Virus record (IMG/VR): IMGVR_UViG_3300042196_000161
Location: 1-32,827 of that record
Reading direction: 5' to 3' (one strand)
Source of the DNA: a virus
Taxonomy: Duplodnaviria; Caudoviricetes
Length of the DNA stretch: 32,827 nt
The notes below the pieces were generated by a model. The model saw only the letters and a list, made by a program, of their open reading frames with translations, was not told where the DNA came from and did not search any database. Position numbers and translations under genes: made by a program. Shown piece by piece: positions 1,496 to 24,338 of this stretch (within the stretch, counting starts at the first letter, position 1; the number at the start of each line of letters is the position of its first letter).

Positions 1496-1843
1496 TCACC
1501 TCCAGTTCAAGTTCTGATCGAGCTCCCGCCCGGGCTCGACCCCGTGCTTCTTCCGTACCGCTTCGAGCTTCTGGTTCAGCTCTTTGTTCAAGCGGTCCAC
1601 CTCTGCGGTCACCGCCACAAATTGATTGCCCCCTTGGGACTGGTACCACCGCTCCACAGCCTGGCGGATGGCGGCTTCGATCTGGGCATCGCGCTCCCTG
1701 ACCAATTCCAACTGGCGTTTCTCCAGGATCGCAACACGGGCGCGGACCAGCAGTAAGTCCACCTTCTCCTCCGCACTCAGCGGCGCCGGCTCCCCTGCGC
1801 TGGCCAGAAAGAGAATTGATAAAGCCAACAGGATCACTCGCAT
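1496..1843 (-). CDS. Secreted or membrane-anchored coiled-coil protein (possibly spanin-like)
   Basis: MRVILLALSILFLASA hydrophobic N-terminus followed by a charged heptad-rich helix. Confidence 0.6.
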   Translation of the reverse strand: MRVILLALSILFLASAGEPAPLSAEEKVDLLLVRARVAILEKRQLELVRERDAQIEAAIRQAVERWYQSQGGNQFVAVTAEVDRLNKELNQKLEAVRKKHGVEPGRELDQNLNWR

Positions 1844-1883
1844 ACCTTCATCCTAAGGCAAACACAACCACAATCCAAGCGTC

Positions 1884-2594
1884 TCATATGTGCAGGGCAA
1901 CACAGTAGAGGGTTCCGGTGTGGGCATTCCCCGCATCCTCGTTATAGATGCCGACCACGATGGAACCTGCAACGAACGACTCGATGTGATGGATCCTTAA
2001 GGTTGAGGTGCTCGTTGCTGCTTCCTTGACAGAGCAGACCGGCGTATAGTTGGCATCGGCAAACGCATCCCCACCCCACGTCAGGGTGACCGAGGCGTAG
2101 GTGAGCGCGGCTATGCTGCCTGTGGACACGCTCTGGTGCTTCAGGCCACCACCACTCGCGTCGACGCCGGATTTGACTTTGAGCGAGGCGATTGCCAACC
2201 TATTCGCCCCATCATCCCAGAAGAAGTTTGCGTTATCCTGGGCACAGGCAGTGCCGTTCCAGAATAGAACAGATCCTGCCGTGAATCCCGCCCCACAACC
2301 TGCAAAGGTTGCCGGATCAGTCCATGACATCACTCCGGCGGTCGTTGCCGTCAGCGCGTAGCCGTTCACCGCGGGATTCGCCGCAGGCAGAGTGAGCGAC
2401 AGGTTTGCGGCCAAGGCGTCAGGAGCCTTGATCGCGGTGTAATTCTCCCCACCAGCCGCCAACTCGTAGAACCGGGCCTGTCCAGTCTCGCCGGCGCCGA
2501 CCCCAATCGGACTGTGGATCACGATGGGGATCGAAATGTGCTGCCCCGCGAGACAGCCGACAAGGACTAACGCCAAAAGCAACGCTCGGATCAT
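1884..2594 (-). CDS. Short fibre-like protein with signal peptide or lipobox and C-terminal beta-sandwich (gp53/H-lectin-like) domain
   Basis: MIRALLLALVLVGCLAGQ N-terminus; fibre-type motifs (IKAPDALAANLSLTLP, QDNANFFWD); C-terminus resembles that of the 8236 gene; ATGA overlap with upstream gene. Confidence 0.7.
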   Translation of the reverse strand: MIRALLLALVLVGCLAGQHISIPIVIHSPIGVGAGETGQARFYELAAGGENYTAIKAPDALAANLSLTLPAANPAVNGYALTATTAGVMSWTDPATFAGCGAGFTAGSVLFWNGTACAQDNANFFWDDGANRLAIASLKVKSGVDASGGGLKHQSVSTGSIAALTYASVTLTWGGDAFADANYTPVCSVKEAATSTSTLRIHHIESFVAGSIVVGIYNEDAGNAHTGTLYCVALHI

Positions 2595-3163
2595 GCAATG
2601 TCTCCCAAGCTGAACAGCCGGTAGTAGACGGCCCCCACCCGGCGGAACCTGACGAAACTCAGGCGGTTGGCGGTTCGACCAACGGTGAGCGCATCGACAC
2701 CGTGAAAGTCAGCCGCCCAATTCACCACCCAGGCACCTACGCCATCCTGGGTGTATCGGTACTCGACCTCAGAACCATCGGGAACATCACTCGGGGCGAG
2801 TTCGGTGATGTTTCCTGTCAGGGTCTTTGCGACCTGAAGCACGCCGAGCACCGCGACCCAAGAACCGGGAGGCGAACTCGTGTCGAACCTGTAAAGCACG
2901 CGGTTGGTCGACAGGAAGACGATTGACCCCTCGTAGGCGAGCGTATCGGTCACAATCGGCAGCGTCGTGACAACCGGCAGCACGAATACCGCCGAGACCT
3001 GAGGCCCGGCAGCGGTCTGGACGGTGACGGTTTGGATCTGGCTGGTTGCCCCGGTTTTCTCGTGGATGAGAGAAAAAGCGTATTGCAACGCCGCGCGAAC
3101 CTGGGGATCGGCCTTCCCGTCGAGGCTCGGATAGTAGGGAGCCTGGGTCGGTCTAGCCGCCAT
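2591..3163 (-). CDS. Hypothetical tail-associated protein (190 aa)
   Basis: ATG at 3163 (MAARPTQAPYY) overlaps the end of the nozzle gene; C-terminal YTQDGVGAWVVNW resembles phage fibre-end beta domains. Confidence 0.65.
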   Translation of the reverse strand: MAARPTQAPYYPSLDGKADPQVRAALQYAFSLIHEKTGATSQIQTVTVQTAAGPQVSAVFVLPVVTTLPIVTDTLAYEGSIVFLSTNRVLYRFDTSSPPGSWVAVLGVLQVAKTLTGNITELAPSDVPDGSEVEYRYTQDGVGAWVVNWAADFHGVDALTVGRTANRLSFVRFRRVGAVYYRLFSLGDIA

Positions 3164-6100
3164 AAGAAGGCACCCCCTGTTGCCCGCCACCACCGAACGG
3201 CTTCACGATCCTGTACGGACCTTCGTCGCCCCAGTTCTTCACGTAAACCTCGGCTTCATCCCGAAACAGCCGGAAACCGGCCGAAGAACTGAACTCGAAA
3301 TCATACAACCGGCCCTTGTTCGGTCGAAACATGACATGGCGTTTCTGTTTAACGCCGGCTGTGGCGGCGATCGTGTAGTCCTCCGTGCCTGATTCTGCAA
3401 CGATCCGCAAGGTGACCGCCGACGTCGAGATCAGGGGAACGTAGATGCGGAAGATGTGGCCGAAGCCTTGCAAACCGAGCGAATTGGCGGTAGTCCGCCA
3501 TAGAGTCAGCAGTGGCGGCGCCGGGATAGTGAACCACTCGAAGCCGGTCACGCGCCAGGGATTCGCATCGGTCGGGACCAGCCGGCCGAGGTGGCCGATG
3601 AATTCGGCCCATGTGAACTCCAGCGGCTTCTCGCCGTTGCTGTTCACTGTGAGCGTGATCCCCGTGTCCACCTGGTCTTTCCACACCTCAACGGTTTTCG
3701 CCACGCCGAATGTGTCGACCCAGAGCCTGATTCCGTAGACGTAGGAGTCGACAGCAAGTCCACCCTTGGCGAATGGCTGCCAGTCGATCAGTCGACGCTG
3801 CTGGTCTTCTGGCTTCTGGATATAGGCAAGCTCCCAGGAATGCAGCCGTGGCCCACGTCCGAGCCAAGTCACTTCGAGCGCGGCGTTGCGGACGATCAGG
3901 CCCGCGCCTGAGTTGATGTCGAGCCGGTACTGCGCCCGACCGGAGCCGGTGATTGTTGCCAGGGTGACCGAGCTTTGCTCATCGTCGTACTTGATCAGCG
4001 GCGTCAGGACTTTTCCGCCCGGATCGACGTTCAGTGCCGCGTCTCCGAGAAGCTTCTTCGCGACCGGGTCACCACCATCGTCCGAGAAGGTCCGCACCAC
4101 ACAGGGGATCTCGGCCCCGTCGTCTGTCTCCCCGCCCGCCTTATGGATGTGGCCGTCCAGGGCGCCCAGGAACATATCGTGGACCCCATCGCCTTCCGAC
4201 GAGTAGCGCAGGCCGCCGAGGAGCGGTGGATTCGAGAGGTCGGCGACCCAGCCACGGCCAGGGATGTAAACGAACGTCCGGGGAGCGTTCGCGGTGTCCC
4301 GGTAATCGAAGTAGAGCTTTTCATCGTGGTAGGCCAGGCGCAGATAGTTGCGCTTGGTCATGTCCACCGGGAAGTGCTCGTTCACCTGAATCCCGGCCGA
4401 ACCCTCATGCGGAAACAGCGGGTACAGGTCGTCATCGGTGATCGACTCCGAGGGCCCACCGTCTGTCACGTAGATACCATCTTTCGATAGAAACCAGATC
4501 TTGCCCCCTCCCAAGCACCAGGCGAACCGCGCCCAGAGGCCCCGCCCGCACGCTGTCCGGTAGATCGTCAGAAACCGGCGATCGCCGGTCGGTGACGGGT
4601 AGATGGCATAAAGATGGTCGGAGCTGAAAACGAAGTTTCGGGTGTCATGGACAAAGCCATTCACCAGCGGCTCTCCGGCGCCTTGGGTCACCTCTTGAGT
4701 GAAGGCCTCCGGCGCCGCATCCGCATCGTTGCCTTTCGTCCAGGAGAGAAAACCCGGGTTGCTACTGCCGGCGCAACCATAAAGCGAGCCTTCATGGGGA
4801 CCCCAGACCGCTGGCAGTGCCTGGCCCATGAGGATCGGAGATGGCAAGCTGAAGCTGACGTTTTCTCCGAAACCAGCCGATTCGGTCAGCAACAGCAGGG
4901 TCGCTGTCAGGACGCTGTGGACTACGAACGCCAATTTGTCCACGAAAATCACCGCACCCGGCTTCCAACTGAGGTTGAACTGATCGCCATCTTTCCATTC
5001 GAGAGCGATCCCGGTAACGTTCACATGGCCCTGACGACTGAGATCGGCGAGCGGGAATGGTTGATCCTGATCTTCGTCGAGCAACTCACCGCTCGCCGTG
5101 TCGGTCGGATTGGCTTCGTCGTTGAAGGTCGGGGTGGCGCCGTTCTCCGTGGTCCCCACGTAGCGCCATTCGTTGATCCCGCCACCGAATCGAAATACAT
5201 CTAGTTTGTCCACCTGCCCATCGGGGTGTTGCGTAAGAGTGAGCTTAATTCGTCCCCGCAAGGGTGGGTTGACCTGAGCCAGATTCACCGGCGACGCATT
5301 TGATTTCGCCCCAGTGGCCGAAGAACGCCCCCGGTAGCGGTACTGGAAGGGTAAGGCCGTGCTCGTAAAATCCGGCCCGAAGCCACCCCGAATATAGAGT
5401 GAGTTCACCTGGATGACGGCGTCGGTTCCAGCCGGCGCGTTGGCCACCCGCAACTCGAGGCGGATTCCGACGATATCCTTCAGCGTCCTGGTGCGATCAG
5501 TCCCCACGCGCACCAGATCCGACAGGTGGAAAAAGAGTTCGGAATACTGGTTCGACGCCCCGCGGGGAGAACTCAGATCAGTCAGGCCCCACTGCACGTA
5601 GAAGTAGTTTTTGGTGAATGCCGTAGCGGTGAACACGCCGGCGGATACTGAGTCAGAGGCACAGTCCAGATACAGCGTCGCTTGGGTCAGTTTGGTGTCC
5701 AAGTCGATCTTGAAACTCACGTGGATGTAATCGTCTCGTCCGGTTTGCCGGCCCAGGCCACCGGTCTGCATCCAGGAGAAATCGAGGGTCTTGACTTTCT
5801 GGATCCACCCGAGTTCATTCGATACCTTGAATTGCAGCGTGTCGAGCTCGACGGTTTCACCGGCCGCGTGAGTCAGACCTGTGAACAGCCGAATGCCGGT
5901 CTCCCAGGAGACCGTAACCAAACCGGCCGGGGCGCGGAGGCTGAAGTTCGGATGGTTCCCGGTGAAGAATACGCGCACGCAGTGCTGATCGTCGGGGCCG
6001 TCAATGATGCCGCGCACCCAGACCCGCTCGCTGGTGATTGCATCCGTGATAGCGAGCGGGCTGTTCAGTTGGATCACCGGATCCCAAGTAACGCCGGTTG

Positions 6101-6899
6101 AGGAGTGGCTGAAGGTAATCGTCGCCCAACCGGTTGAGCCCGAGTCGAAGGCAATCCGGCGAACCCGGTTGACGAGCGCCGGCGCCGTCATCACGCGATC
6201 CACGGTGGCGTACTGGGCTGTTCCGCCGCCCTTGTTGATGAGGACCCGCATCCCGGCCTGCCAGGCTTCGGTAATCGCTAGCGTGAAAATGCCCCAGCCG
6301 GCCGCGCCAGTCTCCCACAGCACCGCGACGATAGCGGACGAAGCGGCTCTCGTTTGCAGCGTGATCGCAGATGCCGTTCCGCCAGTCGCCCAGCCGGTCA
6401 CCACGTCCAGTTCTTCCCCGATCGTGTACTGCGGGATCTCTAGAGCAGTCGTGATCTGGTTGGCTGGCGGCGCGATGCCCATATTGCGGGTCAGCCCGGA
6501 CTTCAACTTCCGCATCCGCGATGTCGAGGCCGCATAGACCCAGGTTTCCGGAGAGTTCTCAGGGCGATAGGGTACAAGCGAGAGGGTAGTCCCAGGCCAG
6601 GCGCTATCCCGCTCGGTCGAGATGCCGCCGGAGCTGATCTCGAATAGCTTTGTCCCTGCGCCGGCAACCAGGACGTAAGTCCCGTCGAGGGCGTTCAGCC
6701 TGCGCAGGCTGTGCGCCTCTCCACCCAGAGCTGCTTGAGTGAACTTCGTCAAGCCCTCACGTGCCTCGAAAGTGCCATCGACCAGTGGCCGGACGTTCAG
6801 CAGGCGACGGTAGCGGTCTGGCTGCTGAAGTGTGGCGTCGGAACGAAGCGCCAGTCCCTTGCTGGCAAACGGCCGCGGTTGGCGTTGAAAGTCGCTCAT
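3153..6899 (-). CDS. Tail nozzle / DNA stabilisation protein (P22 gp10 / T7 gp12-like), enlarged
   Basis: 1248-aa beta-rich ORF; N-terminal LLNVRP..DGTFEAREGL and propeller-like segments (GKIWFLSKDGIYVTDG..SESIT); follows the adaptor gene with ATGA overlap. Confidence 0.7.
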   Translation of the reverse strand: MSDFQRQPRPFASKGLALRSDATLQQPDRYRRLLNVRPLVDGTFEAREGLTKFTQAALGGEAHSLRRLNALDGTYVLVAGAGTKLFEISSGGISTERDSAWPGTTLSLVPYRPENSPETWVYAASTSRMRKLKSGLTRNMGIAPPANQITTALEIPQYTIGEELDVVTGWATGGTASAITLQTRAASSAIVAVLWETGAAGWGIFTLAITEAWQAGMRVLINKGGGTAQYATVDRVMTAPALVNRVRRIAFDSGSTGWATITFSHSSTGVTWDPVIQLNSPLAITDAITSERVWVRGIIDGPDDQHCVRVFFTGNHPNFSLRAPAGLVTVSWETGIRLFTGLTHAAGETVELDTLQFKVSNELGWIQKVKTLDFSWMQTGGLGRQTGRDDYIHVSFKIDLDTKLTQATLYLDCASDSVSAGVFTATAFTKNYFYVQWGLTDLSSPRGASNQYSELFFHLSDLVRVGTDRTRTLKDIVGIRLELRVANAPAGTDAVIQVNSLYIRGGFGPDFTSTALPFQYRYRGRSSATGAKSNASPVNLAQVNPPLRGRIKLTLTQHPDGQVDKLDVFRFGGGINEWRYVGTTENGATPTFNDEANPTDTASGELLDEDQDQPFPLADLSRQGHVNVTGIALEWKDGDQFNLSWKPGAVIFVDKLAFVVHSVLTATLLLLTESAGFGENVSFSLPSPILMGQALPAVWGPHEGSLYGCAGSSNPGFLSWTKGNDADAAPEAFTQEVTQGAGEPLVNGFVHDTRNFVFSSDHLYAIYPSPTGDRRFLTIYRTACGRGLWARFAWCLGGGKIWFLSKDGIYVTDGGPSESITDDDLYPLFPHEGSAGIQVNEHFPVDMTKRNYLRLAYHDEKLYFDYRDTANAPRTFVYIPGRGWVADLSNPPLLGGLRYSSEGDGVHDMFLGALDGHIHKAGGETDDGAEIPCVVRTFSDDGGDPVAKKLLGDAALNVDPGGKVLTPLIKYDDEQSSVTLATITGSGRAQYRLDINSGAGLIVRNAALEVTWLGRGPRLHSWELAYIQKPEDQQRRLIDWQPFAKGGLAVDSYVYGIRLWVDTFGVAKTVEVWKDQVDTGITLTVNSNGEKPLEFTWAEFIGHLGRLVPTDANPWRVTGFEWFTIPAPPLLTLWRTTANSLGLQGFGHIFRIYVPLISTSAVTLRIVAESGTEDYTIAATAGVKQKRHVMFRPNKGRLYDFEFSSSAGFRLFRDEAEVYVKNWGDEGPYRIVKPFGGGGQQGVPSYGG

Positions 6900-8233
6900 T
6901 CTGAAACGCTTTCCATGATTTTTTTCGCATCATCCGACTGCCGCGGCCTCTGTTTCTGCTCTTTGGTCTGACGGCTGGTCATGATGTCTTCGAATCCGCC
7001 TGACGCCCGCAACTTCTTATTCACGATCCCGGCCAGATCGAAGAACTGAGTCAACAGGGGCATCGTCGACTGGAATTCCTCACCACCCATCTTGAAGGTC
7101 GCGACGTGCTCGGCGTATCCGATGATGACGTCCAAGTGCTCGCGACCAACCTGCAGAAATGCCCCATCGTGCGCAGGGATTGGCGCGTTGCGAATGACGT
7201 CGACGGTGAGCCCATAGACTCCATCCGGCACATTCGCCAGGCACACAAGATTCTCCCCGGCACTCCCGATGGCTCTGGGCTCGCCAGTGTCGTTCTGCCA
7301 GTTCGGCAACATGGCGTCGAGATCCAGGATGCTGTTAATCCACAAGGGCCGGCCACCGATCTGGGCGTGGATGACGCTTTGTGCAATCTTTGCGAGGCTG
7401 ATGCCAGATTTCCAGCGTGCCTCACAGTACGCGGCACGCGCGGCATCGCGGCTCTCACCTTGCCGGCCGAGCAAATCCGCCAAGGTACCCCATTTGACTA
7501 CCCATGCGTAATCGTCAGGAACGCCCAGCAGGACCCCGGCAACCGGATCGAGGGCAGCCCCGGTCTGAACGCTGACCACATCCAGGGCGCCCTCGTCGAG
7601 GGGCGGCGGGGCAAGCTGCAACTCGAATGGACGCGCGGCTGAGACACTGAAGGCCCGTGGCGTAGCTGGCTCAATTGACCACGTCGGCAGGAAGGCGCTC
7701 AACCCGTGTTCATCTTCCCGCCAGAGATGCTTGTAGACTCCCTCCACGCTCCGCCAAGCCAGCCGGCGCACGTCGATATAGGAATCGGGGATCGTCACCC
7801 GCCCGGCCGGCGGCGCAGAAATCGGCAGCGTCCCATGAGTCAGAATCGTTCCCGTTTCGAGTAGAAACTGATCGCGCCGGCGCTGGAGAGCGGCTACGAG
7901 GTCCGGGAGTGTGAACTGTGTCGATCCCGTCCAGCCCGTTGGGGTCACGGGTTCGAGCAGGTGCGCTTCAAGTTCGGCGACCACATTCCGATCGGTCACA
8001 ACGTTGCCGAGCAACGTCGGCAATTCGGCGCCGAGATCATAGAAGGCGACATTCGCTTGGGTGGGCAAAGCGCCGCGTTCCCGGGAGGAATCCGTTGCCG
8101 CTTGCCATAGCCGCAGACCCTCATACAGAAGCGCGCGGAGCTCGCCCGAGGACCAGAAACTCAGCGAAGGATCACCGAGCCTGGCCGCAACCGCCGCGAC
8201 TGCGGCGGCAAGTGTGGTGTGGGCGTAGGCCAT
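6896..8233 (-). CDS. Head-tail adaptor-like protein (445 aa)
   Basis: Start trimmed to ATG 8233 (MAYAHTTLAAAV..RLGDPSLSFWSSGEL..LYEGLR), a typical adaptor N-terminal helix; immediately upstream of the nozzle. Confidence 0.65.
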   Translation of the reverse strand: MAYAHTTLAAAVAAVAARLGDPSLSFWSSGELRALLYEGLRLWQAATDSSRERGALPTQANVAFYDLGAELPTLLGNVVTDRNVVAELEAHLLEPVTPTGWTGSTQFTLPDLVAALQRRRDQFLLETGTILTHGTLPISAPPAGRVTIPDSYIDVRRLAWRSVEGVYKHLWREDEHGLSAFLPTWSIEPATPRAFSVSAARPFELQLAPPPLDEGALDVVSVQTGAALDPVAGVLLGVPDDYAWVVKWGTLADLLGRQGESRDAARAAYCEARWKSGISLAKIAQSVIHAQIGGRPLWINSILDLDAMLPNWQNDTGEPRAIGSAGENLVCLANVPDGVYGLTVDVIRNAPIPAHDGAFLQVGREHLDVIIGYAEHVATFKMGGEEFQSTMPLLTQFFDLAGIVNKKLRASGGFEDIMTSRQTKEQKQRPRQSDDAKKIMESVSE

Positions 8234-8235
8234 GG

Positions 8236-10341
8236 CTATTCGTGAACCGCCACGCAGTTCAGGGTCCCACTGGCCGCCGCAGCGGTCAGGGCCGCGATGG
8301 TGACCTTGATCGACGCGGCCAGTTTCGTGTTGGTCGAGAGCACGTAGGGCACGTTTGTAGGGTTGTCGATCGTGCAGGTCATCGTGTAAAGCGCATCGGC
8401 GAACGTCGTGTTCCAGGTAATTGTCGAATCGCAGGTGGCCCCGATGGCGGCGGCGGTCGTGCAACTCCCCAAGCGGATGTGCTGGAAGCCAGCCGAGTTC
8501 TTGTAGATCCCCACGGGGATATTCAGGCCATTGCTGTCGATGACCATGTAATTCACAGTGGCCCGCTGTACCCTAAACGCACTGGCGGCGTTCTTCACGT
8601 CGATCACGGCATCCCTGGCGACCGTACCCGTCACTCCCGCCTGCCACAACTCTTGGGCGCCGTTGTCAACCATGCTGCCCGAGAAGGCGGCCGCCGGCGC
8701 GGTGTACCAAGCGAAACCTGTCGACCCGCCGCCCCCGACGTTGACAAACTTGGTGGCGAAGTTGCCGGAGAACAACACGTCGGTCGAAAAGGTGGTGACC
8801 CCGGAACCGTCGATCAAGACCTTATCGGTTCCCTGGTTGCGCAATCGAATTGTCGATCCAGAGTTGACTCCGTCCAGAATCAGATCAGAGTTGATCGCAG
8901 CCGTACCGGCGAAGATTTGGAGGTTGCCGTTATCGTATACACCGGCCTGGGTGGCGCCGCCTGACGTATTCCGCCAGAATAGCCCGGCGCTTCCACCAAG
9001 CACGTTCCAAAGGATCGAAGAGTTCGCGGTCACCTGTAGAGTGACGTCCAGGCGGGCCTCTCCGGTGATGTGATTTTCCAAGCCGATGTCGGTCTCAGTG
9101 GCCCATACCTGGGACCCGCTCGCGTTGTTGGTCACGCCGGCTCCCAGGAAACTGCCGATGACCCGGTTAAACGTGCCCCCTGTAGTCGAACCCGTAGCTG
9201 CCGCCAATTCAAGTGAGATCGTCCCGACCTCGGTTTCGGTCCTGATCGCCACCCAAGTATTGGCGTAGGCTTCGCTTTTGAATTCGGTCGCGTAATGCTC
9301 CGCGTCGATGAGCTCGATGAGGTTCTGATTTCCCTGTTCGAGGTGGAAGCCGATGTACCCGACCTGTGGAGATCCGGAATAGACGATCGCGCCGCCGGTG
9401 AAGGTGCAGGAGTTGAAGCCCCACCCGATATCGGTCGCGGTCATGTAGACCCCCTTGCGGAACTTGCCCTGGATCTGGTTCTGCTCCCACACCAGATAAG
9501 CTCCGAAAGTTGCGTCCGCGGCAGACCCGCCCACCAGTTTCAGCCCGACCTGCTGATTCGCACCGACCGCATAGGCGTTGTTGGTGTAGAGGCGATTATT
9601 CCGTAGGGTGACATAGAGTGACGGGTTGACCTGGATGGCCACGGCACTCGCTCCAGCCCCCGTGATGTCGATCTGGAGATTCTCGATGGTGTGCCGGTAG
9701 GTGAAGGTCGCCGCCGCCTGAACCCCAACCGTAAGAGCTGCGGCGGTGCCCGAGTACGTCAGCGTAGTCGTCGCAAACGATGGCGCAAACAAACGAACAC
9801 CATTTAGCGTGGTCCCAATCGAAATCCCGGTAGCCCCCAACGAGCAGGTTTTTCCGGGTGGGAACGCCACGGCACCCCCCGTTACGATGGCCGCGTCGAT
9901 GGCTGCCTGGATCGCCGCAGCGTCGTTGGTGGCGCCGTCGCATACCGCCCCGTACTTCGGGTCCGTGATATCGAACTGCTGATCGGCGGGATCGAACAGC
10001 ACGTAGTCGCCCAAAGTGAACGGCGTCGGAATTCCGCCGCCCGAGAACCGCACATCGAAGCGGCCGGGATCCGCGTAGAAAAACCACAGGCCCGTGGCCG
10101 CAGCGGTGAACGGATTCGCCTTCGGCGTACCCGCATTGTCGGCGAAAATGCTCGCCAGGTTGGTCGTCCCGGCCTTGTAGACGGTCACCGTGCAAGAGGG
10201 TCGGCTCGCTTGGACTGTCGGGCTGACGGACACCGAGCCGGCGGTAGCGGTGATTCCGCCCTCCTGACACCATCCTTGGAGCTTGTCGCGGCCATGCGCG
10301 AGGCCGGCAAAAACTGCGAAGACGAGTAAGAGCCGTTTCAT
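8236..10341 (-). CDS. Tailspike with pectate-lyase-like beta-helix, preceded by a signal peptide
   Basis: FDITDPKYGAVCDGATNDAAAIQAAIDAA..GGAVAFPPG beta-helix cap motif; N-terminal VTVYKAGTTNLASIFAD..NPFTA..G.WFFYA..GRFDV attachment domain; MKRLLLVFAVFAGLAHG leader. Confidence 0.8.
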   Translation of the reverse strand: MKRLLLVFAVFAGLAHGRDKLQGWCQEGGITATAGSVSVSPTVQASRPSCTVTVYKAGTTNLASIFADNAGTPKANPFTAAATGLWFFYADPGRFDVRFSGGGIPTPFTLGDYVLFDPADQQFDITDPKYGAVCDGATNDAAAIQAAIDAAIVTGGAVAFPPGKTCSLGATGISIGTTLNGVRLFAPSFATTTLTYSGTAAALTVGVQAAATFTYRHTIENLQIDITGAGASAVAIQVNPSLYVTLRNNRLYTNNAYAVGANQQVGLKLVGGSAADATFGAYLVWEQNQIQGKFRKGVYMTATDIGWGFNSCTFTGGAIVYSGSPQVGYIGFHLEQGNQNLIELIDAEHYATEFKSEAYANTWVAIRTETEVGTISLELAAATGSTTGGTFNRVIGSFLGAGVTNNASGSQVWATETDIGLENHITGEARLDVTLQVTANSSILWNVLGGSAGLFWRNTSGGATQAGVYDNGNLQIFAGTAAINSDLILDGVNSGSTIRLRNQGTDKVLIDGSGVTTFSTDVLFSGNFATKFVNVGGGGSTGFAWYTAPAAAFSGSMVDNGAQELWQAGVTGTVARDAVIDVKNAASAFRVQRATVNYMVIDSNGLNIPVGIYKNSAGFQHIRLGSCTTAAAIGATCDSTITWNTTFADALYTMTCTIDNPTNVPYVLSTNTKLAASIKVTIAALTAAAASGTLNCVAVHE

Positions 10342-10342
10342 G

Positions 10343-10792
10343 TTAGGTCCCCGAACAAGCCGCCTGCTGGCTCACCAGTTGGCCTGAGGTGTTGATGCAG
10401 ACGTAGCGGACCCCGGTCGTAGCCTTCTGGGCTTCTATGAACAAGTTAGCTGTCGCCCCGCCGCCCGCATCGCGCAGAAACAAGGACGGATTGACCTGAT
10501 AGACCAATTGGAGCGAGATCGACTTGGGATCTCCACCGGCCGGCCCTAAAATCAGGGAGGTTAACCCGGTTCCAGCAGCGTTGGTGATATTCACGAACCC
10601 ATCGGCCGTCGAAGTCAATTGGGACCGTCCCGACCACCCGATAGCCGAACTGGCTCCGGCGGTCAAGGCCCCATTAACTGTGAAGCTGCCACCGGTGATG
10701 TTGCTCAGGTTGGCGAGATTCGCCTGCTGGGCGAGAAGCGCTCCCAGACCGGCTATCAGGGCCAACGCGATGATTGAGTGATTCGCCTTCAC
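10343..10792 (-). CDS. Secreted fibre-like protein (149 aa)
   Basis: MKANHSIIALALIAGLGALLA|QQ leader; Gly/Thr-rich beta segments; two C-terminal Cys; GTGA overlap. Confidence 0.7.
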   Translation of the reverse strand: MKANHSIIALALIAGLGALLAQQANLANLSNITGGSFTVNGALTAGASSAIGWSGRSQLTSTADGFVNITNAAGTGLTSLILGPAGGDPKSISLQLVYQVNPSLFLRDAGGGATANLFIEAQKATTGVRYVCINTSGQLVSQQAACSGT

Positions 10793-10986
10793 TTCTCGCC
10801 TCCGTTCTTCTGGGTGCCTCTCAACGCTCCCAGTAGGGCGCCGAAGACGCCAACCAGGATGTCATCACCCTTCGGGAGCTTGAGCCAGACCATGGCGATG
10901 CCCAACAGCAACAAGCCGGTGAGGAGCAACACGTGGCCCCCTGGTGTGTCCAAGGTATCGAGCCAAGTCTTCCAGCCTTGCATCAT
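10789..10986 (-). CDS. Small two-TM membrane protein, holin candidate
   Basis: 65 aa, two hydrophobic stretches, basic C-terminus; coupled to both neighbours. Confidence 0.55.
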   Translation of the reverse strand: MMQGWKTWLDTLDTPGGHVLLLTGLLLLGIAMVWLKLPKGDDILVGVFGALLGALRGTQKNGGEK

Positions 10987-11669
10987 TGGATGACCCTCCT
11001 GGCGTTGTTCGTATCGGCTGCGAAGCTGAGCGTGTCCGCAAAATTTGCGAACGCATCGCCGGTCACCCCGGCTCCCGCGTCATACGACACCTGGAAGGTC
11101 CGCGTCCCGTTGCCGCCCCACCCGCCGCCGACGTTGGTAACCTGCACCTCGACCACAATACGGTCACCGACAGCCATCACCGTCGACGTCGGGGCGGCCG
11201 CCGCGATGGCCTTGTTGGCGTTGGTCGTACACTCGGCGCTGGAGGCTGACGTGTGGATCGTGGCGTCGATCCCGCCCTTGGCGCGGCTCCAGCGGTAGAC
11301 GACCATCCGGAACCCGGCGTTCATCGCCGTGGCGCTCTCCAGGCACCCGGCCTGGTAGTCAATGTTCCCGGAGATCGTCACCCCGGCCGATAGCGGAGCC
11401 GAGATGAAGCGCAGGTACTCCCCGCTCCCGGTGGCTGTCTGCTGTGTGCAGGGTGGGGCCGAGGAGGTCGGGGCGAAGGTCTTACTGACCACGCTCGAAC
11501 CTTGTGCAGTGGTCAGCGTGCGCCACGTGTAGGTGTTGGTCCCATTCACGCAGCCGATGCCGCCGCCGGCGGTAGCTGTCCGGCCGAGCACCGAAACGGC
11601 ATCGTGGAGTAGGAGTTTCGTCCCGAAGGCTGGCAGGGTGATGAGCAAGATCAGGAGCAGGCGGCGCAC
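10983..11669 (-). CDS. Secreted beta-sandwich protein (228 aa)
   Basis: MRRLLLILLITLPAFG leader; GGAG RBS; four Cys; Thr/Ser/Gly-rich. Confidence 0.7.
   Translation of the reverse strand: MRRLLLILLITLPAFGTKLLLHDAVSVLGRTATAGGGIGCVNGTNTYTWRTLTTAQGSSVVSKTFAPTSSAPPCTQQTATGSGEYLRFISAPLSAGVTISGNIDYQAGCLESATAMNAGFRMVVYRWSRAKGGIDATIHTSASSAECTTNANKAIAAAAPTSTVMAVGDRIVVEVQVTNVGGGWGGNGTRTFQVSYDAGAGVTGDAFANFADTLSFAADTNNARRVIQ
11035..11051. repeat. Dispersed 17-bp palindrome copy (16/17)
   Basis: TCCGCAAAATTTGCGAA within CDS (encodes FANFAD). Confidence 0.9.
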
Positions 11670-11670
11670 G

Positions 11671-13974
11671 TCAGTTGACTCCCTCGCACTTATAGGTCAT
11701 GGCCACTGTCACGTCGGCCAGGCCCGAGCCTGGCGTCACTGTCACCTTGAAGGCGTCGCCGGCTGCCACCGTAGCCGTGGTGGGCGCCCCGCCCGCGACC
11801 GATTGCGTGCTGGCGTTCAGGGTCACCGCCGAGCCATAGATGTTGGAGGTCGCCGTGCAGTCTCCTGCCGCCGTAGTACACCGGGCGATGTTGTAGGTCG
11901 AGCTCGACCCCGAGGTCGTGTCCACCGAGATCCGGCTGTTCGTGATCGTGCAGTTGGTGACTCCCTCAGGGATCAGGACCCGGGCGGTCTGGGTTCCGCT
12001 GACGACGACGCCCGGCAGGAACCACTGGGCAACGGCGAAGCTCCGGTGGGTGTGATCGGAGCGAGACGCCGTGGTGTCGTCGCCGGCGTTGAACGCCGCG
12101 ATGCCGGCAGATCCAGCGCTCACCAGCGACGCCTTGGCGTTGAAGGTGCTCCAATCGGCGCTGGCCAGGGCCCCCCGGTTGCTGGCGCTCGCGGTTGGCA
12201 GGTTGAAGGCAATGGAGTTGGCGGCATGGGCGATGGCGAAGTCGGTCCCGGTGGTCCCGGTCGAGAGCGTCTTGTGCTCGATTGCCGTCGCCCCGGCATC
12301 GGTCCCCAAGATCTGGTTCGCAGCCCCAAACGGCAACTGAGCCAGGGTCGCCGCGCCGCTCAGGTTCGAGAACCCGGGTTGGGTGCAGGTCGGTGCGGCG
12401 TCTCCATTGAGTGTGCTGGCCCAGGTGTTCGCCCCGCAGGCGCCCACGCCAGAAGCGGCCAGCGATGAATCCACCCATTCGGTTCCGTCAGACTTCAGGT
12501 ACTTGCCCGTGGTCGGGATCGTGTGGAGCGTCCACTTCGGCGTGGCACCGACACCCAGCATGATCCCGCCGCGAGTGACAGCGGCCGCCGTGGTATCGCT
12601 GTGGGTGGCGCTGAGGATGTCGTGGGGGCCACCCCCGCCTCCACCGTCGCCCAGCGCCACCCAGGCCGCGCCACTATCCCGGCATAGCGCCAGTGCGGAG
12701 CCCCCGCCGGCCGTGCAGTTGCCGGCGGCTGAAGCGTCGGTCACCACGGCCAACCGACCCGCCGTCCCGGCGGCGGGCAGCCCGGCAACCGTGTACCCGA
12801 CCAGGACCGGCACGTCGTTGAAGACGACCGTCGTCCCGGAGCCGGTAGTTGCCGAGACCCCCGTCAGGTCGGTGAGTGCCCACACCTCCTGCCCCTGGGC
12901 GATGTTCAACTTCGTCCCAGCGGTCAGGCCGGCATAGCCGGACGCGGCGTCTTTGTTGGCCTGCACCTCGATCGTGGCGTCGGCGTTTGGAAAGGTGAAA
13001 GTCTTAGCAGTGGTGGCGGGTCCCGTCACCTGGAAGAAGGCGTTGTTAGTGCCCCCCCGAGCCGCCGGGAACGTACCGCTGGTAATCTTCGCCGTGTCGA
13101 GACTCGGGATGTCGCCAGTCGCCAGCGTGTCCCAAGCCGGCAGCGCAGAGATAGCGCCGTTGCCCACCTGTCGGAGGAATTGCCGGGTCGTCGTAATGTT
13201 CCCAGCTACCTTGTCCCATGCAGGAGTGGCGTTGCCCGTCAACAGATCGCCCAGGACCGGCGATGCGGCTACCGTGTCGGGATGCGTGGCGCTCAACAGG
13301 TTGTGGTTCGCCCCGCCAGACCCGCACGCCGCCGCCGCGCTCTCCAGGGCGGTCCCGCCGGCGTTCACCTGGACACACCGTCCGCCCGTCCAGGTCGCCT
13401 GGTTAGTTCCTCCACCTGCCAGCCCGAGCGTCCCGGTAGTGTCGAGCGCCAAGTCCACGGATGCACAAGTCGGTGCAGCATCGCCATTCAGGGTCCGGGG
13501 GAATTGATTCGTGCAACCCCCCACGCCAGACGCCGCGCCGGTAGAATCCACCAAGTCCGTTCCGTCGCTCTTGAGATATTTCCCAACGGTTGGCAGGGTG
13601 TGCAGCGTCCACTTAGGGACCGCACCAACACCGATCATCAACGCTCCCCGGGCAACGGCTGCGGCGGTCGTGTCGCTGTGGGTGGCACTCAGGATGTTAT
13701 GGTCGCCTCCCGGCCCCCCAGTACCACCCTGCTGCTCCCACGTTCCATTTATGCAGACCCAGATATTCTGCCCAGCGGCCGCATCTGATTGTGTGTATCG
13801 CCGAGCAAGACCATTGCAAGTACCAGTTGGAGGCCCCACCGCAGCGTAGGGCGAAACCGCCGGCGTCACATTGCTCAGATTCCCGACGTTATGCTGTTGC
13901 CCCCAGCTAATCGCCAGAACAAGGAAGAAAGCCGTTGCCAACTTGGCGATCTGAATTAAGGATCTCATGTTCAT
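11671..13974 (-). CDS. Long tail-fibre-like protein with internal repeats and signal peptide (767 aa)
   Basis: Start trimmed to ATG 13974 (ATGA overlap); MNMRSLIQIAKLATAFFLVLAISWG|QQ; three HxxLSATHxDT repeats; G/A/T-rich; many Cys. Confidence 0.8.
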   Translation of the reverse strand: MNMRSLIQIAKLATAFFLVLAISWGQQHNVGNLSNVTPAVSPYAAVGPPTGTCNGLARRYTQSDAAAGQNIWVCINGTWEQQGGTGGPGGDHNILSATHSDTTAAAVARGALMIGVGAVPKWTLHTLPTVGKYLKSDGTDLVDSTGAASGVGGCTNQFPRTLNGDAAPTCASVDLALDTTGTLGLAGGGTNQATWTGGRCVQVNAGGTALESAAAACGSGGANHNLLSATHPDTVAASPVLGDLLTGNATPAWDKVAGNITTTRQFLRQVGNGAISALPAWDTLATGDIPSLDTAKITSGTFPAARGGTNNAFFQVTGPATTAKTFTFPNADATIEVQANKDAASGYAGLTAGTKLNIAQGQEVWALTDLTGVSATTGSGTTVVFNDVPVLVGYTVAGLPAAGTAGRLAVVTDASAAGNCTAGGGSALALCRDSGAAWVALGDGGGGGGPHDILSATHSDTTAAAVTRGGIMLGVGATPKWTLHTIPTTGKYLKSDGTEWVDSSLAASGVGACGANTWASTLNGDAAPTCTQPGFSNLSGAATLAQLPFGAANQILGTDAGATAIEHKTLSTGTTGTDFAIAHAANSIAFNLPTASASNRGALASADWSTFNAKASLVSAGSAGIAAFNAGDDTTASRSDHTHRSFAVAQWFLPGVVVSGTQTARVLIPEGVTNCTITNSRISVDTTSGSSSTYNIARCTTAAGDCTATSNIYGSAVTLNASTQSVAGGAPTTATVAAGDAFKVTVTPGSGLADVTVAMTYKCEGVN

Positions 13975-14684
13975 GGCAACCTTACCGTGCAAATGGAGAT
14001 CCCGACCGAGCCGCCCGTGAGGAACGTCGCATCGTAGACGGGCGCTCCTGCGAGAGCGCCGAAGGAAGTCGAATCGACCGGGATCGTAAATGTGCCGCCG
14101 CCGGTCACCGTGACTGTCCAACTGCCATTGATCGCCGTCCAGTTTCCGGTTGCTCCGGAGATCGTCACGTGCGCGCCGGTGGCCAACCCATGAGCGGCCG
14201 CAGTCAACTCCACCGGGTTGGCATTGGTGGCGGCGGTGATAGCCACCGAGACGGCCCCGAAATTCCGGGCGGTCGCTGTGAACCGGGCCAGCACGGCGCG
14301 CGCCGCCATGGTCGTCGATTTGAATAGTACCGTGTCCTGAAAAGCGGTGTCAGAAACAGCGGTCACCTCACCAATGCTGAGGGCGAGCGTGTAGGCCGTC
14401 GTGCTGCTCGAATCGCCGACGCTCACCGAGACATCGGTCATCGCTCCGGCCCCATCGGAGAACTGGGCTGAGTGCTTGACCGTCACCGCGTTTATCTTTC
14501 GCCGCGCCAGGAGTGTGAAGAGAGTGACATCCGCCGTCGCGGCCGCTGCCTTGAAGGCTGCGTTGGTCCTGGTGACCGTATACGTGGCGCAGGAAGGCAC
14601 GTTATCCGGCAGACCGTCGACAATGATCTGGGCCTTCAGCCCGAGAGCCAGCAGCAGCCCAAGCGCAAATTTTGCGGATGTCAC
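13971..14684 (-). CDS. Secreted structural protein with inserted FCCH-like beta-barrel (237 aa)
   Basis: GTG 14684 with GAGGAG RBS; MTSAKFALGLLLALGLKA|Q; AITAATNANPVELT...HGLATG..VTISG module. Confidence 0.7.
   Translation of the reverse strand: MTSAKFALGLLLALGLKAQIIVDGLPDNVPSCATYTVTRTNAAFKAAAATADVTLFTLLARRKINAVTVKHSAQFSDGAGAMTDVSVSVGDSSSTTAYTLALSIGEVTAVSDTAFQDTVLFKSTTMAARAVLARFTATARNFGAVSVAITAATNANPVELTAAAHGLATGAHVTISGATGNWTAINGSWTVTVTGGGTFTIPVDSTSFGALAGAPVYDATFLTGGSVGISICTVRLP
14662..14678. repeat. Dispersed 17-bp palindrome copy (15/17)
   Basis: AGCGCAAATTTTGCGGA in the first codons of the CDS. Confidence 0.85.
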
Positions 14685-14694
14685 GATGGTCTCC

Positions 14695-15288
14695 TCAAAA
14701 TGGGATGTAGCTCGCGTAGCATCCATCCCCGTTGTTGGCCGCATCGACGAAGAGCTCCCGAACCGAAAGCGCATTCAGCCCGCCCATGATGGCGGAACTG
14801 ACGGTCTGTCCGGCCGCGAGCTCGACCACCACACCAGCACCGGAGACTCGATCCATGTTCCTGGTGCCCACGAACAGCGTCCCGCTGTTGCCACGTAGCG
14901 CCTGGACGAAGATCGAGTTGGTTTTCTGCCCGAGGATGCCCGAGTTGGCCACAGTCCCAGCGGCCCTCAGGTCGGTGTAGTTGCCGAGCAGGTCCTTGGG
15001 CAGGCTCACTACGCCGCCCGCGACGTAGGCGACCGCGAACACCACGTCGATGACGAAGTTGTTGGCGTCGACCACCTCGACCACCGTGTGGCGACCGTTC
15101 GCTTCGACGGTTCCGGTGACGTCGCTGATAACGGGCGTGTCGCCCACAGCCAGGCCGTGGGTCGTGGATGTGATCTGCACGTTCCCGGTGTAGGGCCCCG
15201 CAACGCGCGAGATGGCGTTGGTCACGGCGGTGACGGCGATGGTGATCTTCCCGAGAGATTTAACGTTTGCGCCCAGTGGCAGGGCCAT
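14695..15288 (-). CDS. Virion structural protein with FCCH-like insert
   Basis: AAGGAG RBS; ITSTTHGLAVGD..VISDVTGTVEANG module; C-terminal VQALRGNSGTLFVG...GVVVELAAGQ jelly-roll-like motif. Confidence 0.7.
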   Translation of the reverse strand: MALPLGANVKSLGKITIAVTAVTNAISRVAGPYTGNVQITSTTHGLAVGDTPVISDVTGTVEANGRHTVVEVVDANNFVIDVVFAVAYVAGGVVSLPKDLLGNYTDLRAAGTVANSGILGQKTNSIFVQALRGNSGTLFVGTRNMDRVSGAGVVVELAAGQTVSSAIMGGLNALSVRELFVDAANNGDGCYASYIPF

Positions 15289-15573: not shown

Positions 15574-16521
15574 TTACGCCCACCGAGGTGGGTCATGTGA
15601 TTGAAGGTAGTCGGCGTCCCAACCCAGGGCCGGCTGGCCCTGTAAGACGCCGAACTGCTGGTTGTACAAATTGTCGTCTTCGACCTTGACGCGCTTCAGC
15701 CGGTCCTGATACGAACGGTTCACCTTGCCCATCAGGAACTGCCAGTTCGCATTCTGGAGACTCTGGAAGCGGTCCTTGTTGGCTTCCGCCCACTCGTAGC
15801 CCCGCCACAGCGCCCGGTCCTGGAGCAGGGCGCGGGGCATCGTCGGGGGCAGATCGACCGAGTCCGAGAGATCCGTCCCCAGGCGCTGGTAGAGCGCCAG
15901 GAACCGCCGCCGGGCGGTCGGATGTGGCCACCATTCGTACCGGGGGACGCCGCTCGCGCTGTTGACGTGCGCCGCCAGGCAGAATGGATCGCCCACCGAG
16001 CCCCGCTGCGGATCCAGCAGGTCGATCTCCTGCTTCGTGTAGTTGACCTTGATCCAGCGGCTGTTGACCGGATCGACGATCGACTTCCACACCTTGAAGT
16101 CCGTGACCGGAGCCACCTCGTAGGCTTTGTAGACCTGGTAGGCCGCGCCTGCGGCCGCAGCCTCGTAGTAGGGCTCCGAGAGGGTGATGACGCCAGTCCC
16201 GCTGTTATAGCTCGCGATCTCGTAGATCGGAGCCCCGTTGCCGCCCCTAAAGATCCGGTTGGGGAGATCCGCCGCCACAGCGTCGAGGGCGGTCTTGGCC
16301 GTGGCATCGGCGGTGACGGAAGCGGAATCCTGGGTGAGGGTGACCGACCCGGCGGCGATTACGTCGGGAACCGTGAGGGAGGCGCGGACGGTGAGGAAGC
16401 TCCAGCGATCCTTCTCCGAGCGAATGTCGGACCACGCCTGGAGCACCAACTGCTCGGCCAGCAGCGAGGAGAGCTCGGGCACCATCCCGAGCATGTATCC
16501 GACGTAGTCTCTGAAAGCCAC
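15574..16521 (-). CDS. Head-tail adaptor / tail tubular A-like protein
   Basis: N-terminal helical pair plus RWSFL motif; GDPFCLA..YEWWPHP..ALYQR..DL...DLP adaptor-type motifs; position after the capsid genes. Confidence 0.65.
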   Translation of the reverse strand: MAFRDYVGYMLGMVPELSSLLAEQLVLQAWSDIRSEKDRWSFLTVRASLTVPDVIAAGSVTLTQDSASVTADATAKTALDAVAADLPNRIFRGGNGAPIYEIASYNSGTGVITLSEPYYEAAAAGAAYQVYKAYEVAPVTDFKVWKSIVDPVNSRWIKVNYTKQEIDLLDPQRGSVGDPFCLAAHVNSASGVPRYEWWPHPTARRRFLALYQRLGTDLSDSVDLPPTMPRALLQDRALWRGYEWAEANKDRFQSLQNANWQFLMGKVNRSYQDRLKRVKVEDDNLYNQQFGVLQGQPALGWDADYLQSHDPPRWA

Positions 16522-17482: not shown

Positions 17483-18103
17483 TTACCGTTGCGGCCCCAA
17501 CTGCAACTGGCACAGCGCCTCATCGGCGGTGGTCGCGCCGACCGCTTCGAACAGGCGTCCCACCCACCGCGACAGCTTCGTGGCCGCCGTCCCGAAGGTC
17601 ACTGCGGTCGCATCGGCCAGCACGTCGAACAAGCCGTTGTCCGCATCGAGCCCGGCGATGAGCGCATCGCCCGCGAAGGAAGGCTCCTTCGTCTGAGTCC
17701 CCTTGAACTTGCAGACGACCAAGCCGTCGCCGACGTGGATCCAGCAGTGCTTGCCGTTGCCGGGCGCGCTGATGAACACGCCGGCGATGTTGCCGACGTC
17801 CGGGTCACCCACGGCGTCGACGGTTACCTCGAAATTGGCCTTGTCGCTCCACCGGCAGGCGAGACCACGGGCCGGCGAGGTCGTCACAGTCGTCTTGGTC
17901 TTGACGTACATGTACCGGCCTTCGTACAGCGTGCCGATGGTCGTGTCCGACTTCTTGAGGGCCTCGGGCCGGTTCAGATAGATTTCGGCTCCGAGTTGGC
18001 CAGGAGCCAGACCTGGAGCATCGTTGCCTCCACCGGGGTTGGTGTCCGAGATGGTGTTGAGGTAGAGTGTGCTCAGCCTCACGATATCGGTGTCGAGTAG
18101 CAT
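17483..18103 (-). CDS. Capsid decoration/cement-like protein
   Basis: Directly after the MCP; GRYMYVK, AGVFISA..GKHCWIHVG beta-tulip-like pattern. Confidence 0.65.
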   Translation of the reverse strand: MLLDTDIVRLSTLYLNTISDTNPGGGNDAPGLAPGQLGAEIYLNRPEALKKSDTTIGTLYEGRYMYVKTKTTVTTSPARGLACRWSDKANFEVTVDAVGDPDVGNIAGVFISAPGNGKHCWIHVGDGLVVCKFKGTQTKEPSFAGDALIAGLDADNGLFDVLADATAVTFGTAATKLSRWVGRLFEAVGATTADEALCQLQLGPQR

Positions 18104-18118: not shown

Positions 18119-19228
18119 TTAACTGCTGAAGCCGTACAAGAATTTTCCGAGATGTGGCGCGTGCCCCTGGACGTTGAGCCCGGCCTTGATGTGGCCGACC
18201 ACCCGCGTGTTGCGCTGGCTGGGGATGAACCCGCTGAATCCGAAGGCGAACTCTTCGTCGGTCGAGATCCGCAGCGTGAACGCCTCCGGGTTGATCCAGG
18301 CGAAGACCTCGCCCACGGTGACCAACGTGGCGCCCGGCAGCAGGGATTTCGCGGTCGGGCTGGCCGGCGTGGTGAAGGTGCCCGTCAGGTTCGACCCCAG
18401 GATCGGGTGGTTCTCGCCGTAGACCAGCGACGGCGCGTACTCGTCCTTGATGATCCGGGCGCTCATGAACCTGAAACCGGTTGCGCCCCAGATCGGATCG
18501 CGCTCCAGGTTCTCCATGAACCTCTGCTGGGTCTGCATCCGCTCCAGGCAGTAGGCGAACCCGGCCTTGTTCACGACGCCAAGCTTCGGCTCATCCGGCC
18601 CGCGGGAGGCGTCCTGGTGACTCTCCAGTAGGTGATGGTATTGGATCGACCCCGCGTTGCCGGCGCTGTCACCGAGCCACATGGGCGCCGAGTTCAGCAC
18701 GCCGTTGACGGCGCTCCGCGTCTCACCCCCGTAGGTGGTCGCGATGGTGCCGTCCCACGACGGGTCGGTGCCGTTGTTGAAGCACTCGGACAGGCCGTTG
18801 ATCGCCTTGATTCTCGCGGCGCTCTGACCCTCCCGCCAGATGGCAATCGCCAGCATGGCGTTGATCGTGTTGACGGCGGCGCGCATGTCGGCGTCGAGCA
18901 GAGAGATCAGCGCCAGGGGCCCGGTGTTTTCGACCTGGAGGATTTCCTTGTACTCGGGGATCGCCACGTAGATGTAGCGGGGCTTGAACTGGGTGGCGGC
19001 GAGCACCGGGTTCTTCAACAGGTTGAAGTTCTCGCCCTGGCTGTAGAACCCGCCGTTCATGACGCCGTAGAGGAAGCTCGACCGCATCCCGTTCCCACCG
19101 GCGAACGGCTGGGCGCCCTGCTTGCGCAGGTAGGCCCAGAAGGGCGCACCCTTGAAGACCAGGTCGCGCAGAGCTCTCGGGTAGAGCTCAAATTGTGTGA
19201 TGGCTGACAGCTCGTCGAACTGCGGCAC
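18119..19228 (-). CDS. Major capsid protein (HK97 fold)
   Basis: 369 aa after the scaffold; DLVFKGAPFWAYLR, INGL, GFRFMSARIIKDEYAP motifs; GAGGTG RBS. Confidence 0.85.
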   Translation of the reverse strand: MPQFDELSAITQFELYPRALRDLVFKGAPFWAYLRKQGAQPFAGGNGMRSSFLYGVMNGGFYSQGENFNLLKNPVLAATQFKPRYIYVAIPEYKEILQVENTGPLALISLLDADMRAAVNTINAMLAIAIWREGQSAARIKAINGLSECFNNGTDPSWDGTIATTYGGETRSAVNGVLNSAPMWLGDSAGNAGSIQYHHLLESHQDASRGPDEPKLGVVNKAGFAYCLERMQTQQRFMENLERDPIWGATGFRFMSARIIKDEYAPSLVYGENHPILGSNLTGTFTTPASPTAKSLLPGATLVTVGEVFAWINPEAFTLRISTDEEFAFGFSGFIPSQRNTRVVGHIKAGLNVQGHAPHLGKFLYGFSS

Positions 19229-24201: not shown

Positions 24202-24338
24202 GGGCGCACCTCCGCGATTAGGGCCTCGACCCTTGGTTTTGATCCTTCGCCCGGGCATGGTCCTTCCAGCCGATTTACGACGAGCGCGCCGGTGATGAAG
24301 CCCAGAAGGAAGATGGCGAGTTGCAGCTTCCGGCTCAT
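24198..24338 (-). CDS. Small single-TM protein (46 aa)
   Basis: TGATG overlap with the terminase stop, GGAGGTG RBS, ATGA overlap downstream; MSRKLQLAIFLLGFITGALVV. Confidence 0.6.
   Translation of the reverse strand: MSRKLQLAIFLLGFITGALVVNRLEGPCPGEGSKPRVEALIAEVRP

Follow-up and report, generated by a model that had tools for sequence, protein, structure and literature searches.

Predicted Sec-type leaders on the tailspike and fibre-like proteins of a podovirus related to Acidobacteriota phages

We analysed a single virus contig of 32,827 bases (IMGVR_UViG_3300042196_000161; the window, at its full length), in which a tailspike gene and six neighbouring genes open with predicted Sec-type leaders. 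The explanation we favour, to which we assign a probability of about two in three, is that these proteins are exported through Sec, acquire disulfide bonds as they fold in the periplasm, and dock on the particle at lysis. On the evidence that the leaders are conserved among relatives, that they track a cysteine pair in the tailspike's anchor domain and that Cys counts are mostly even, the export and disulfide folding proposed by an earlier, sequence-only reading of the window appear well supported; the addition to virions that it also proposed draws indirect support from the presence of a leader on a head-binding-type domain and from the proteomics annotation of Cellulophaga phage phi18:3, though not for the clade of the cultured relatives, Tunturi 1 and 2, itself.

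Leaders on seven minus-strand genes

The sequence-only reading had placed leaders on seven minus-strand genes, with starts at 1843, 2594, 10341, 10792, 11669, 13974 and 14684, and all seven are present: each gene opens with a basic, hydrophobic, small-residue leader of 16–25 residues, and 7/7 are flagged by a simple rule-based scorer (not SignalP), which found in every case a basic n-region, a hydrophobic h-region and small residues at −3 and −1. As to whether the true starts might lie downstream of the leaders, a gene caller blind to leaders, whose score takes in nothing but length, ribosome site and start codon, chose the same seven starts in preference to longer frames beginning at 14121 and 14774. 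Going upstream, the frame closes after 30 bases at 10341 and after 27 bases at 11669, and the next in-frame start of 10341 lies 36 codons in. Eight of the 37 called genes of the contig are flagged, namely the seven and 14695–15288, the last a probable false positive because its hydrophobic stretch starts at residue 15 and resembles the first strand of a conserved domain. At the background flag rate of 0.3–0.6% (16/5252 internal fragments of all called proteins; 12/1908 from the seven themselves), flagging 7 of 37 genes has a P of about 3e-9. Together, the contig and its 34 related loci, among them some duplicates, have 754 called genes, of which 47 are flagged.

Other particulars of the earlier reading hold up as well. 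None of TerL, portal, scaffold, capsid, both adaptors and nozzle is flagged in the contig, as had been claimed for the capsid, portal, adaptor and nozzle proteins. Gln, said to follow four of the leaders, is the predicted mature end at 2594, 10792, 13974 and 14684, with Gly, Arg and Thr at the other three (cleavage sites placed by eye); Gln at +1 is atypical for the anchor-domain family described below, which mostly has Arg or Asn there. The six beta-rich proteins, for which two or more Cys had been claimed, hold 4 (2594), 9 (10341), 2 (10792), 4 (11669), 14 (13974) and 2 (14684) in mature form, with none in 1843. Two caveats apply: the 2594 leader holds a lipobox-like LVGC at residues 11–14, the other six leaders having no Cys, and Cys density alone is non-diagnostic, the leaderless product of 17483–18103 having 1.9%. 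As far as sequence can tell, the seven leaders are real and a conserved, lineage-wide feature, and they are predicted to act as Sec signals cleaved by signal peptidase I.

The tailspike anchor domain and its cysteine pair

The tailspike (8236–10341, minus strand; 701 amino acids (aa)) consists of a predicted 17 aa leader (10291–10341) that is conserved in the clade and leaves Arg at the mature end, a head-binding-type anchor domain (9991–10287; residues 19–117, with Cys25 and Cys50), a beta-helix and a tip with four Cys. Its body matches PF12708 over residues 129–280 (E 2e-8; 34.6 bits against a cut-off of 27) and is accordingly classed, at the level of sequence matches, as a parallel beta-helix; the protein also matches the tail spike family phrog_2234 (E 4e-4), and its C-terminal tip is 32% identical to the C-terminus of the leader-bearing protein at 1884–2594.

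The leader is kept in 10 of the 14 anchor-domain proteins of clade loci (9 of them distinct), and in the aligned set the Cys pair is present in 9/9 distinct leader-bearing anchor domains and absent from the three leaderless ones. A search with an anchor profile returned 9128 representatives at E <= 0.001, of which we examined the best 150: 116 have a leader, 26 start at the domain itself, and 8 were unclear and dropped, so that the check for leader conservation in homologues comes out in its favour. Within these best 150 of 9128, both Cys occur in 111/116 leader-bearing proteins versus 2/26 leaderless ones, and the two exceptions may be mis-called starts. Cys density C-terminal to the anchor domain is 1.50% with a leader versus 0.45% without, and the Cys total is even in 82/104 leader-bearing versus 8/19 leaderless long proteins. 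Leaderless forms open with Met-Gln/Glu-Arg/Lys near the predicted cleavage point, and the position of the first Cys is taken by Val, Ala, Ser, Thr or Gly; under a leader, the anchor stays at 39–54% identity while downstream parts get swapped. The association between leader and Cys pair in these sequences is strong, and it may have arisen repeatedly.

These comparisons bear on two rival explanations. One holds that the leaders are an artefact of mis-called starts or chance hydrophobic beta-strands, of which the flagged gene at 14695–15288 probably supplies an instance; with starts picked blind, so low a false-positive rate, and leaders both in 116/150 relatives and in the deposited annotations of Tunturi 1 and 2, we consider it almost certainly wrong. 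The other supposes that the proteins stay tethered to the inner membrane by their leaders, or that the leaders divert only part of the pool, and that the copies entering particles are cytoplasmic ones, unexported or made from other starts. Most of the genes do have alternative in-frame starts, and export is a prediction by a simple scorer, but the next start of 10341 would drop Cys25 and the first strand, small residues recur at the predicted cleavage site across relatives, and a cytoplasmic pool would need neither the Cys pair nor the even Cys counts that track the leader, which makes this account very unlikely.

Several signals, each modest, agree on the fold of the anchor domain. A profile search of the PDB up to E 1 returned five sequences, all of them N-domains of the Pan3 (9VYG, 9VYH) and Pam1 (7EEQ) tailspikes (E 0.0015–0.006). 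A structural model built from 106 sequences (predicted local distance difference test, pLDDT, 92.9) places Pam1 and Pan3 first in Foldseek (best E 0.017) and aligns in VIA-align with Pam1 7EEQ at Z 8.1 (root-mean-square deviation 2.8, 82 aligned), with P22 at 7.1–7.3 and with Sf6 at 7.0; an earlier model from nine sequences gave the same top fold matches. From sequence matches and model together, we assign the tailspike N-domain as a putative head-binding-type beta-sandwich, the kind of domain that in Sf6 contacts the tail hub and adaptor, according to the part of the source covered (PMC9728967). By tblastn, the anchor domain finds 24 phage records, comprising Tunturi 1 and 2 and Proteobacteria phages, mostly at tail or tailspike genes; the six Proteobacteria-phage homologues inspected all carry a tail or virion annotation, and none of them has a leader or the Cys pair. 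A complex prediction combining two anchor domains with both adaptor-like proteins (nozzle excluded) scored 0.00 without controls and counts neither way.

Leader-bearing proteins that lack the anchor domain

Beside the tailspike, five beta-rich proteins and one helical protein on the minus strand bear leaders, and the beta-rich ones are stand-alone versions of shaft or tip domains that in other phages belong to fibres with an anchor. The largest, a fibre-like protein of 767 aa with shaft repeats and 14 Cys (11671–13974; leader 13900–13974, Gln-Gln mature end), matches in its shaft the fibres of two related loci, L032 and L019, which bear both leader and anchor, and its C-domain is nearest to unnamed viral clusters (score 0.94). 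Upstream of it, a beta protein of 237 aa (13971–14684; leader 14631–14684; Cys32 and Cys232) is 57% identical over residues 22–143 to the C-terminal domain of a leader- and anchor-bearing fibre (L015), and has a weak FCCH-like insert. A 228 aa beta protein with four Cys (10983–11669; leader 11622–11669) has unnamed viral proteins as its nearest clusters (score 0.94). Of two mini-fibres, one (10343–10792; 149 aa; leader 10730–10792, Gln-Gln mature end, C-terminal Cys pair) matches over residues 99–149 the C-terminus of a 621 aa fibre of L034 at 49%, and the other (1884–2594; 236 aa; four mature Cys, tailspike-like tip) opens with a leader, or a lipoprotein signal, at 2544–2594. Pfam and PHROGs gave no named family for 1884–2594, 10343–10792, 10983–11669 or 11671–13974.

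The helical protein (1496–1843; 115 aa, no Cys; leader 1796–1843) is possibly an exported helper. No homologue turned up among 175 protein-database candidates, and leader-bearing helical proteins of similar size in L033 and L034 align to it at 24–25%, too weak for homology.

Further features were seen in and beside this run of genes. The predicted mature forms of 10343–10792 and 11671–13974, after their Gln-Gln ends, share Asn-Leu-Ser-Asn, possibly a common docking or trimer-start peptide. The FCCH-like inserted domain is common to 14695–15288 and 13971–14684 (33% identical); 14695–15288, with relatives in L011 and L033, might serve in the cytoplasm as a piece on which exported fibres dock. 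Within the run lies a holin-like gene of 65 aa (10789–10986, minus strand) with two hydrophobic stretches and a strong ribosome site.

Phage affiliation, cultured relatives and predicted, optional export

The virion genes form a minus-strand series that runs from TerL and a P22-like portal, through a small lysozyme-like gene and the genes for scaffold and major capsid, to two adaptor-like genes, one nozzle-like gene and the beginning of an ejection-like gene, the adaptor, nozzle, scaffold and ejection labels being based on position and weak matches. All of those given by coordinates here are leaderless, and few members of their families are flagged across the loci: TerL (24338–26479; phrog_5989, E 4e-14; 0/24 flagged), portal (21544–23601; phrog_156, E 1e-18, PF16510 weak; 1/31), major capsid protein (18119–19228; phrog_9953, E 2e-11; 0/34), a 315 aa adaptor-like protein (15574–16521; 0/32) with a fibre-like inserted domain that matches the F2-pyocin side fibre (E 3e-5) and a distal tail protein, a 445 aa adaptor-like protein that is a candidate docking site (6896–8233; phrog_399, E 4e-4, and position; 0/23), and a 1248 aa nozzle-like protein (3153–6899; phrog_3287, E 0.004; 0/18; 28% identical to Tunturi 1 gp31). 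A search of the PDB gave no sequence match for the 445 aa protein, nor does it match the 315 aa one significantly by profile. After the nozzle comes a leaderless 190 aa protein (2591–3163) with position-matched and likewise leaderless counterparts in L001, L031, L033, L034, G412 and Tunturi 1; its position suggests a needle- or short-fibre-like protein, and it may be the source of a plug or tip made in the cytoplasm. Also on the minus strand are what we take, by eye, to be a transposase-like fragment (26564–27127), an HNH endonuclease-like gene (28614–29156) and a DUF5131/gp37-gp68-like gene (31673–32683).

Eight proteins of the contig are collinear with Tunturi 1 at 26–40% identity, and none has a match in Tunturi 3 or Tunturi 4 over the initial 50 kb of each. 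Identities to the Tunturi 1/2 homologues are 33% for TerL, 32% for the portal, 26% for the capsid, 29–30% for the adaptors, 28% for the nozzle and 40% for the anchor domain. Judged by this gene order and these identities, the contig is part of a podovirus that is distant kin of two cultured phages, Tunturi 1 and 2; Tunturi 1–3 are podoviruses infecting Acidobacteriota, in the part of the source covered (PMC11924767). Two related loci lie in metagenome-assembled genomes (MAGs) labelled Acidobacteriaceae and Verrucomicrobiia, and the host is likely an Acidobacteriota bacterium. A scan of viral contigs with a single capsid sequence gave no match; an alignment-based scan gave 25 loci.

In Tunturi 1 and 2 (PP887698, PP885685), gp12, 13, 14, 16 and 17 bear leaders and hold 20, 10, 21, 2 and 32–34 Cys, and gp12 bears the anchor domain with both Cys. 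The main text of the paper describing these phages mentions neither 'signal peptide' nor 'mass spectrometry' (PMC11924767). Tunturi 1 also encodes gp78 (L036:25745-26947), a proline-rich 400 aa protein with a lipoprotein-like leader, annotated 'tail protein' and lying outside the virion module. A further related locus, G412 (L062:1106-17660), has five fibre-like genes with leaders, reaching 2123 aa and 33 Cys, and a pair of these genes open anchor-like. Among the long Gly/Ala/Thr/Ser/Asn-rich proteins of four complete relatives, 17 of 25 have leaders (one after start correction), and the eight leaderless ones are, by position, ejection-like (4), post-nozzle (2), a capsid neighbour (1) and ambiguous (1).

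We considered and rejected two other sources for the trait. Leaders imposed by the host are not borne out by Tunturi 3 and 4, in which 0/28 and 0/22 scored genes are flagged (structural region, first 50 kb); these phages, unrelated to Tunturi 1 and 2, infect the same host genus with leaderless tail genes, and the trait is therefore the phage lineage's and not simply the host's. A general secreted family of the host was set aside with matches in only 2 of 401 Acidobacteriota genomes.

Those two genomes, each with a leader-bearing anchor protein, are also among the points that could speak for another explanation, raised as an alternative by the sequence-only reading, in which the proteins are lysogenic-conversion adhesins, secreted or on the surface, expressed from a prophage. 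A tyrosine integrase in one of five complete relatives, the two loci within bacterial MAGs and the lipobox-like motif in 2594 would fit it too. The genes, however, are packed tightly among same-strand virion genes, PF00589 is absent from 4/5 and PF07508 from 5/5 complete relatives, and no C-terminal membrane anchor was seen by eye in the seven sequences. Integrase or recombinase is annotated for Tunturi 3–5 and not for Tunturi 1–2, and the plaques of Tunturi 1 and 2 are clear, as given in the covered part of PMC11924767. Weakened in this way, the lysogenic explanation is highly improbable.

Not every anchor in the wider clade bears a leader. In one locus (L014:15623-20213), a leaderless anchor protein of 224 aa is followed by a leader-bearing fibre of 1290 aa without an anchor, a pair that looks like a two-piece fibre split between compartments. 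In L003, L004, L005, L006 and L010, glycosyltransferase-like genes of 200–280 aa (recognized by eye) lie downstream of the capsid in the spike slot; the stretches covered hold no leader-bearing spike, and virion glycosylation is possible.

Possible presence of leader-bearing proteins in particles

The record of Cellulophaga phage phi18:3 (NC_021794) annotates 12 genes as structural from tandem mass spectrometry (MS/MS) proteomics. Three of them, gp085–gp087, have a leader followed by Gln and hold 0, 1 and 3 Cys; the other 9/12 have no leader.

This comparison bears on the possibility that the proteins are exported but never become part of the particle: derived from tailspikes, they would leave the periplasm during lytic growth as depolymerases, receptor decoys or blockers of superinfection. 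Such an account would accommodate the lack of an anchor domain in six of the seven, the occurrence of several as free-standing tips or shafts of fibres, and the leaderless appendage candidates, which could handle adsorption. It sits poorly with an anchor that is kept, at the identities given above, under the leader, since a free enzyme has no need of one, and with phi18:3, whose leader-bearing proteins are annotated as structural proteins detected by MS. We regard free action as unlikely.

Discussion

According to the explanation we favour, the capsid, portal, adaptors and nozzle would be made in the cytoplasm without leaders, and the tailspike and its six neighbours would be routed through host Sec. 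Signal peptidase I would cut so that the anchor starts within one or two residues of the point at which leaderless relatives start. Disulfides would then form and trimers assemble in the periplasm. Failure of the inner membrane at lysis would bring the spikes together with completed particles, to whose adaptor or nozzle the anchor domain would bind in the manner of P22-type head-binding domains. The spikes of P22 and the fibres of T4 join last and can add in vitro. The weakest step concerns the five anchor-less beta proteins, which might attach through another partner, as branches of the spike or at a different site, or might act free.

More tentatively, these features could describe a two-compartment particle in a large tailed-phage lineage, with a head and tail core made in the cytoplasm, disulfide-locked spikes and fibres and an exported helper made in the periplasm, and the two joined only at lysis. 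The anchor spike might carry the anchor-less fibres as branches, spikes might be swapped between co-infecting phages or acquired after release, and the route might have been gained or lost repeatedly and might also exist in Bacteroidota phages.

Several observations weigh against export and docking as set out here. The search profile behind the larger comparison is biased to leader-bearing forms (9/12 rows), and a tree test on 98 columns gives 16 changes on the best tree, only two of them forced on supported branches (sign test p 0.5). The contig's own tailspike has an odd Cys count (9), and 5/6 of the leaderless Proteobacteria-phage tailspikes still hold 9–15 Cys downstream. Unrelated pilin- and transthyretin-like sandwiches score VIA Z 7.0–7.7, near-tied with 7EEQ; with that near-tie and a Foldseek E of 0.017, the fold alone therefore also allows a general adhesin sandwich. 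A recognisable virion anchor is found in only one of the seven leader-bearing proteins, and the sole experimental hint of presence in particles, phi18:3, lies outside the Tunturi clade, in another lineage, with proteins that hold 0–3 Cys and could be co-purified. The contig, at only 33 kb, is a fragment. Its own leaderless appendage candidates are the product of 2591–3163 and the insert of 15574–16521; in the complete relative L001, two large post-nozzle proteins without leaders accompany a leader-bearing spike, the anchors of L012 and L013 are leaderless, and several clade members have no leader-bearing gene in the stretch covered. With such leaderless anchors and appendages, and loci without leader genes, export would therefore be optional within the clade.

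The usual view is that assembly of tailed-phage particles takes place entirely in the cytoplasm; phage genes with leaders are mostly classed as lysis or host-modifying genes. The literature searched, mostly titles and abstract openings with subscription papers thinly covered, yielded no tailed phage with exported virion appendages. Each part is of a known kind; the assembly route fits no tailed-phage pathway that we found described and would be new if confirmed. The host-recognition apparatus would then gain access to the periplasm's disulfide machinery, and the final assembly step would be tied to lysis. Annotation of host-range genes in soil phages would change, Cys-rich unknown genes of virion modules would be explained, and there would be a way to make disulfide-stabilised fibres. 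The cultured Tunturi 1 and 2 make the export-and-attachment route directly testable.

Elements of this arrangement have counterparts in other systems. Porphyromonas prophages likewise carry genes with a Sec leader and Gln at +1, following the Q-rule, which in the covered part of their description are of unknown function and read as host-membrane modifiers and not as virion parts (PMC10367356); the Q-rule itself is described for Bacteroidetes, with Acidobacteria unmentioned in the part of that source covered (PMC5837995). Phage phi18:3 (Pachyviridae) shares with the contig a leader and Gln on proteins annotated as structural, and differs in its Bacteroidota host and almost complete lack of Cys, its record being silent on leaders. 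Among inoviruses, pIII of Ff is a virion receptor-binding protein with a cleaved leader and periplasmic disulfides; inoviruses, however, assemble at the membrane without lysis, with pIII membrane-anchored, whereas the contig's phage has a tailed-phage head and a capsid made without leaders. Tunturi 1 and 2 have homologous core genes, podovirus shape and a series of leader-bearing, Cys-rich genes, and as distant kin have other spike bodies. With P22 gp9 (2VKY, 8TVR), Pam1, Pan3 and Sf6 gp14 (7SG7), the contig's tailspike shares an N-terminal sandwich followed by a beta-helix, and with P22/Pam1-type phages a portal, adaptor and nozzle neighbourhood, its gene lying inside a podovirus virion module. 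Known P22-type spikes fold in the cytoplasm; to their plan, the contig's spike adds a Sec-type leader and a conserved Cys pair. The leader being present and conserved, the tailspike would therefore work like a P22/Pam1-type spike without being a plain member of that group.

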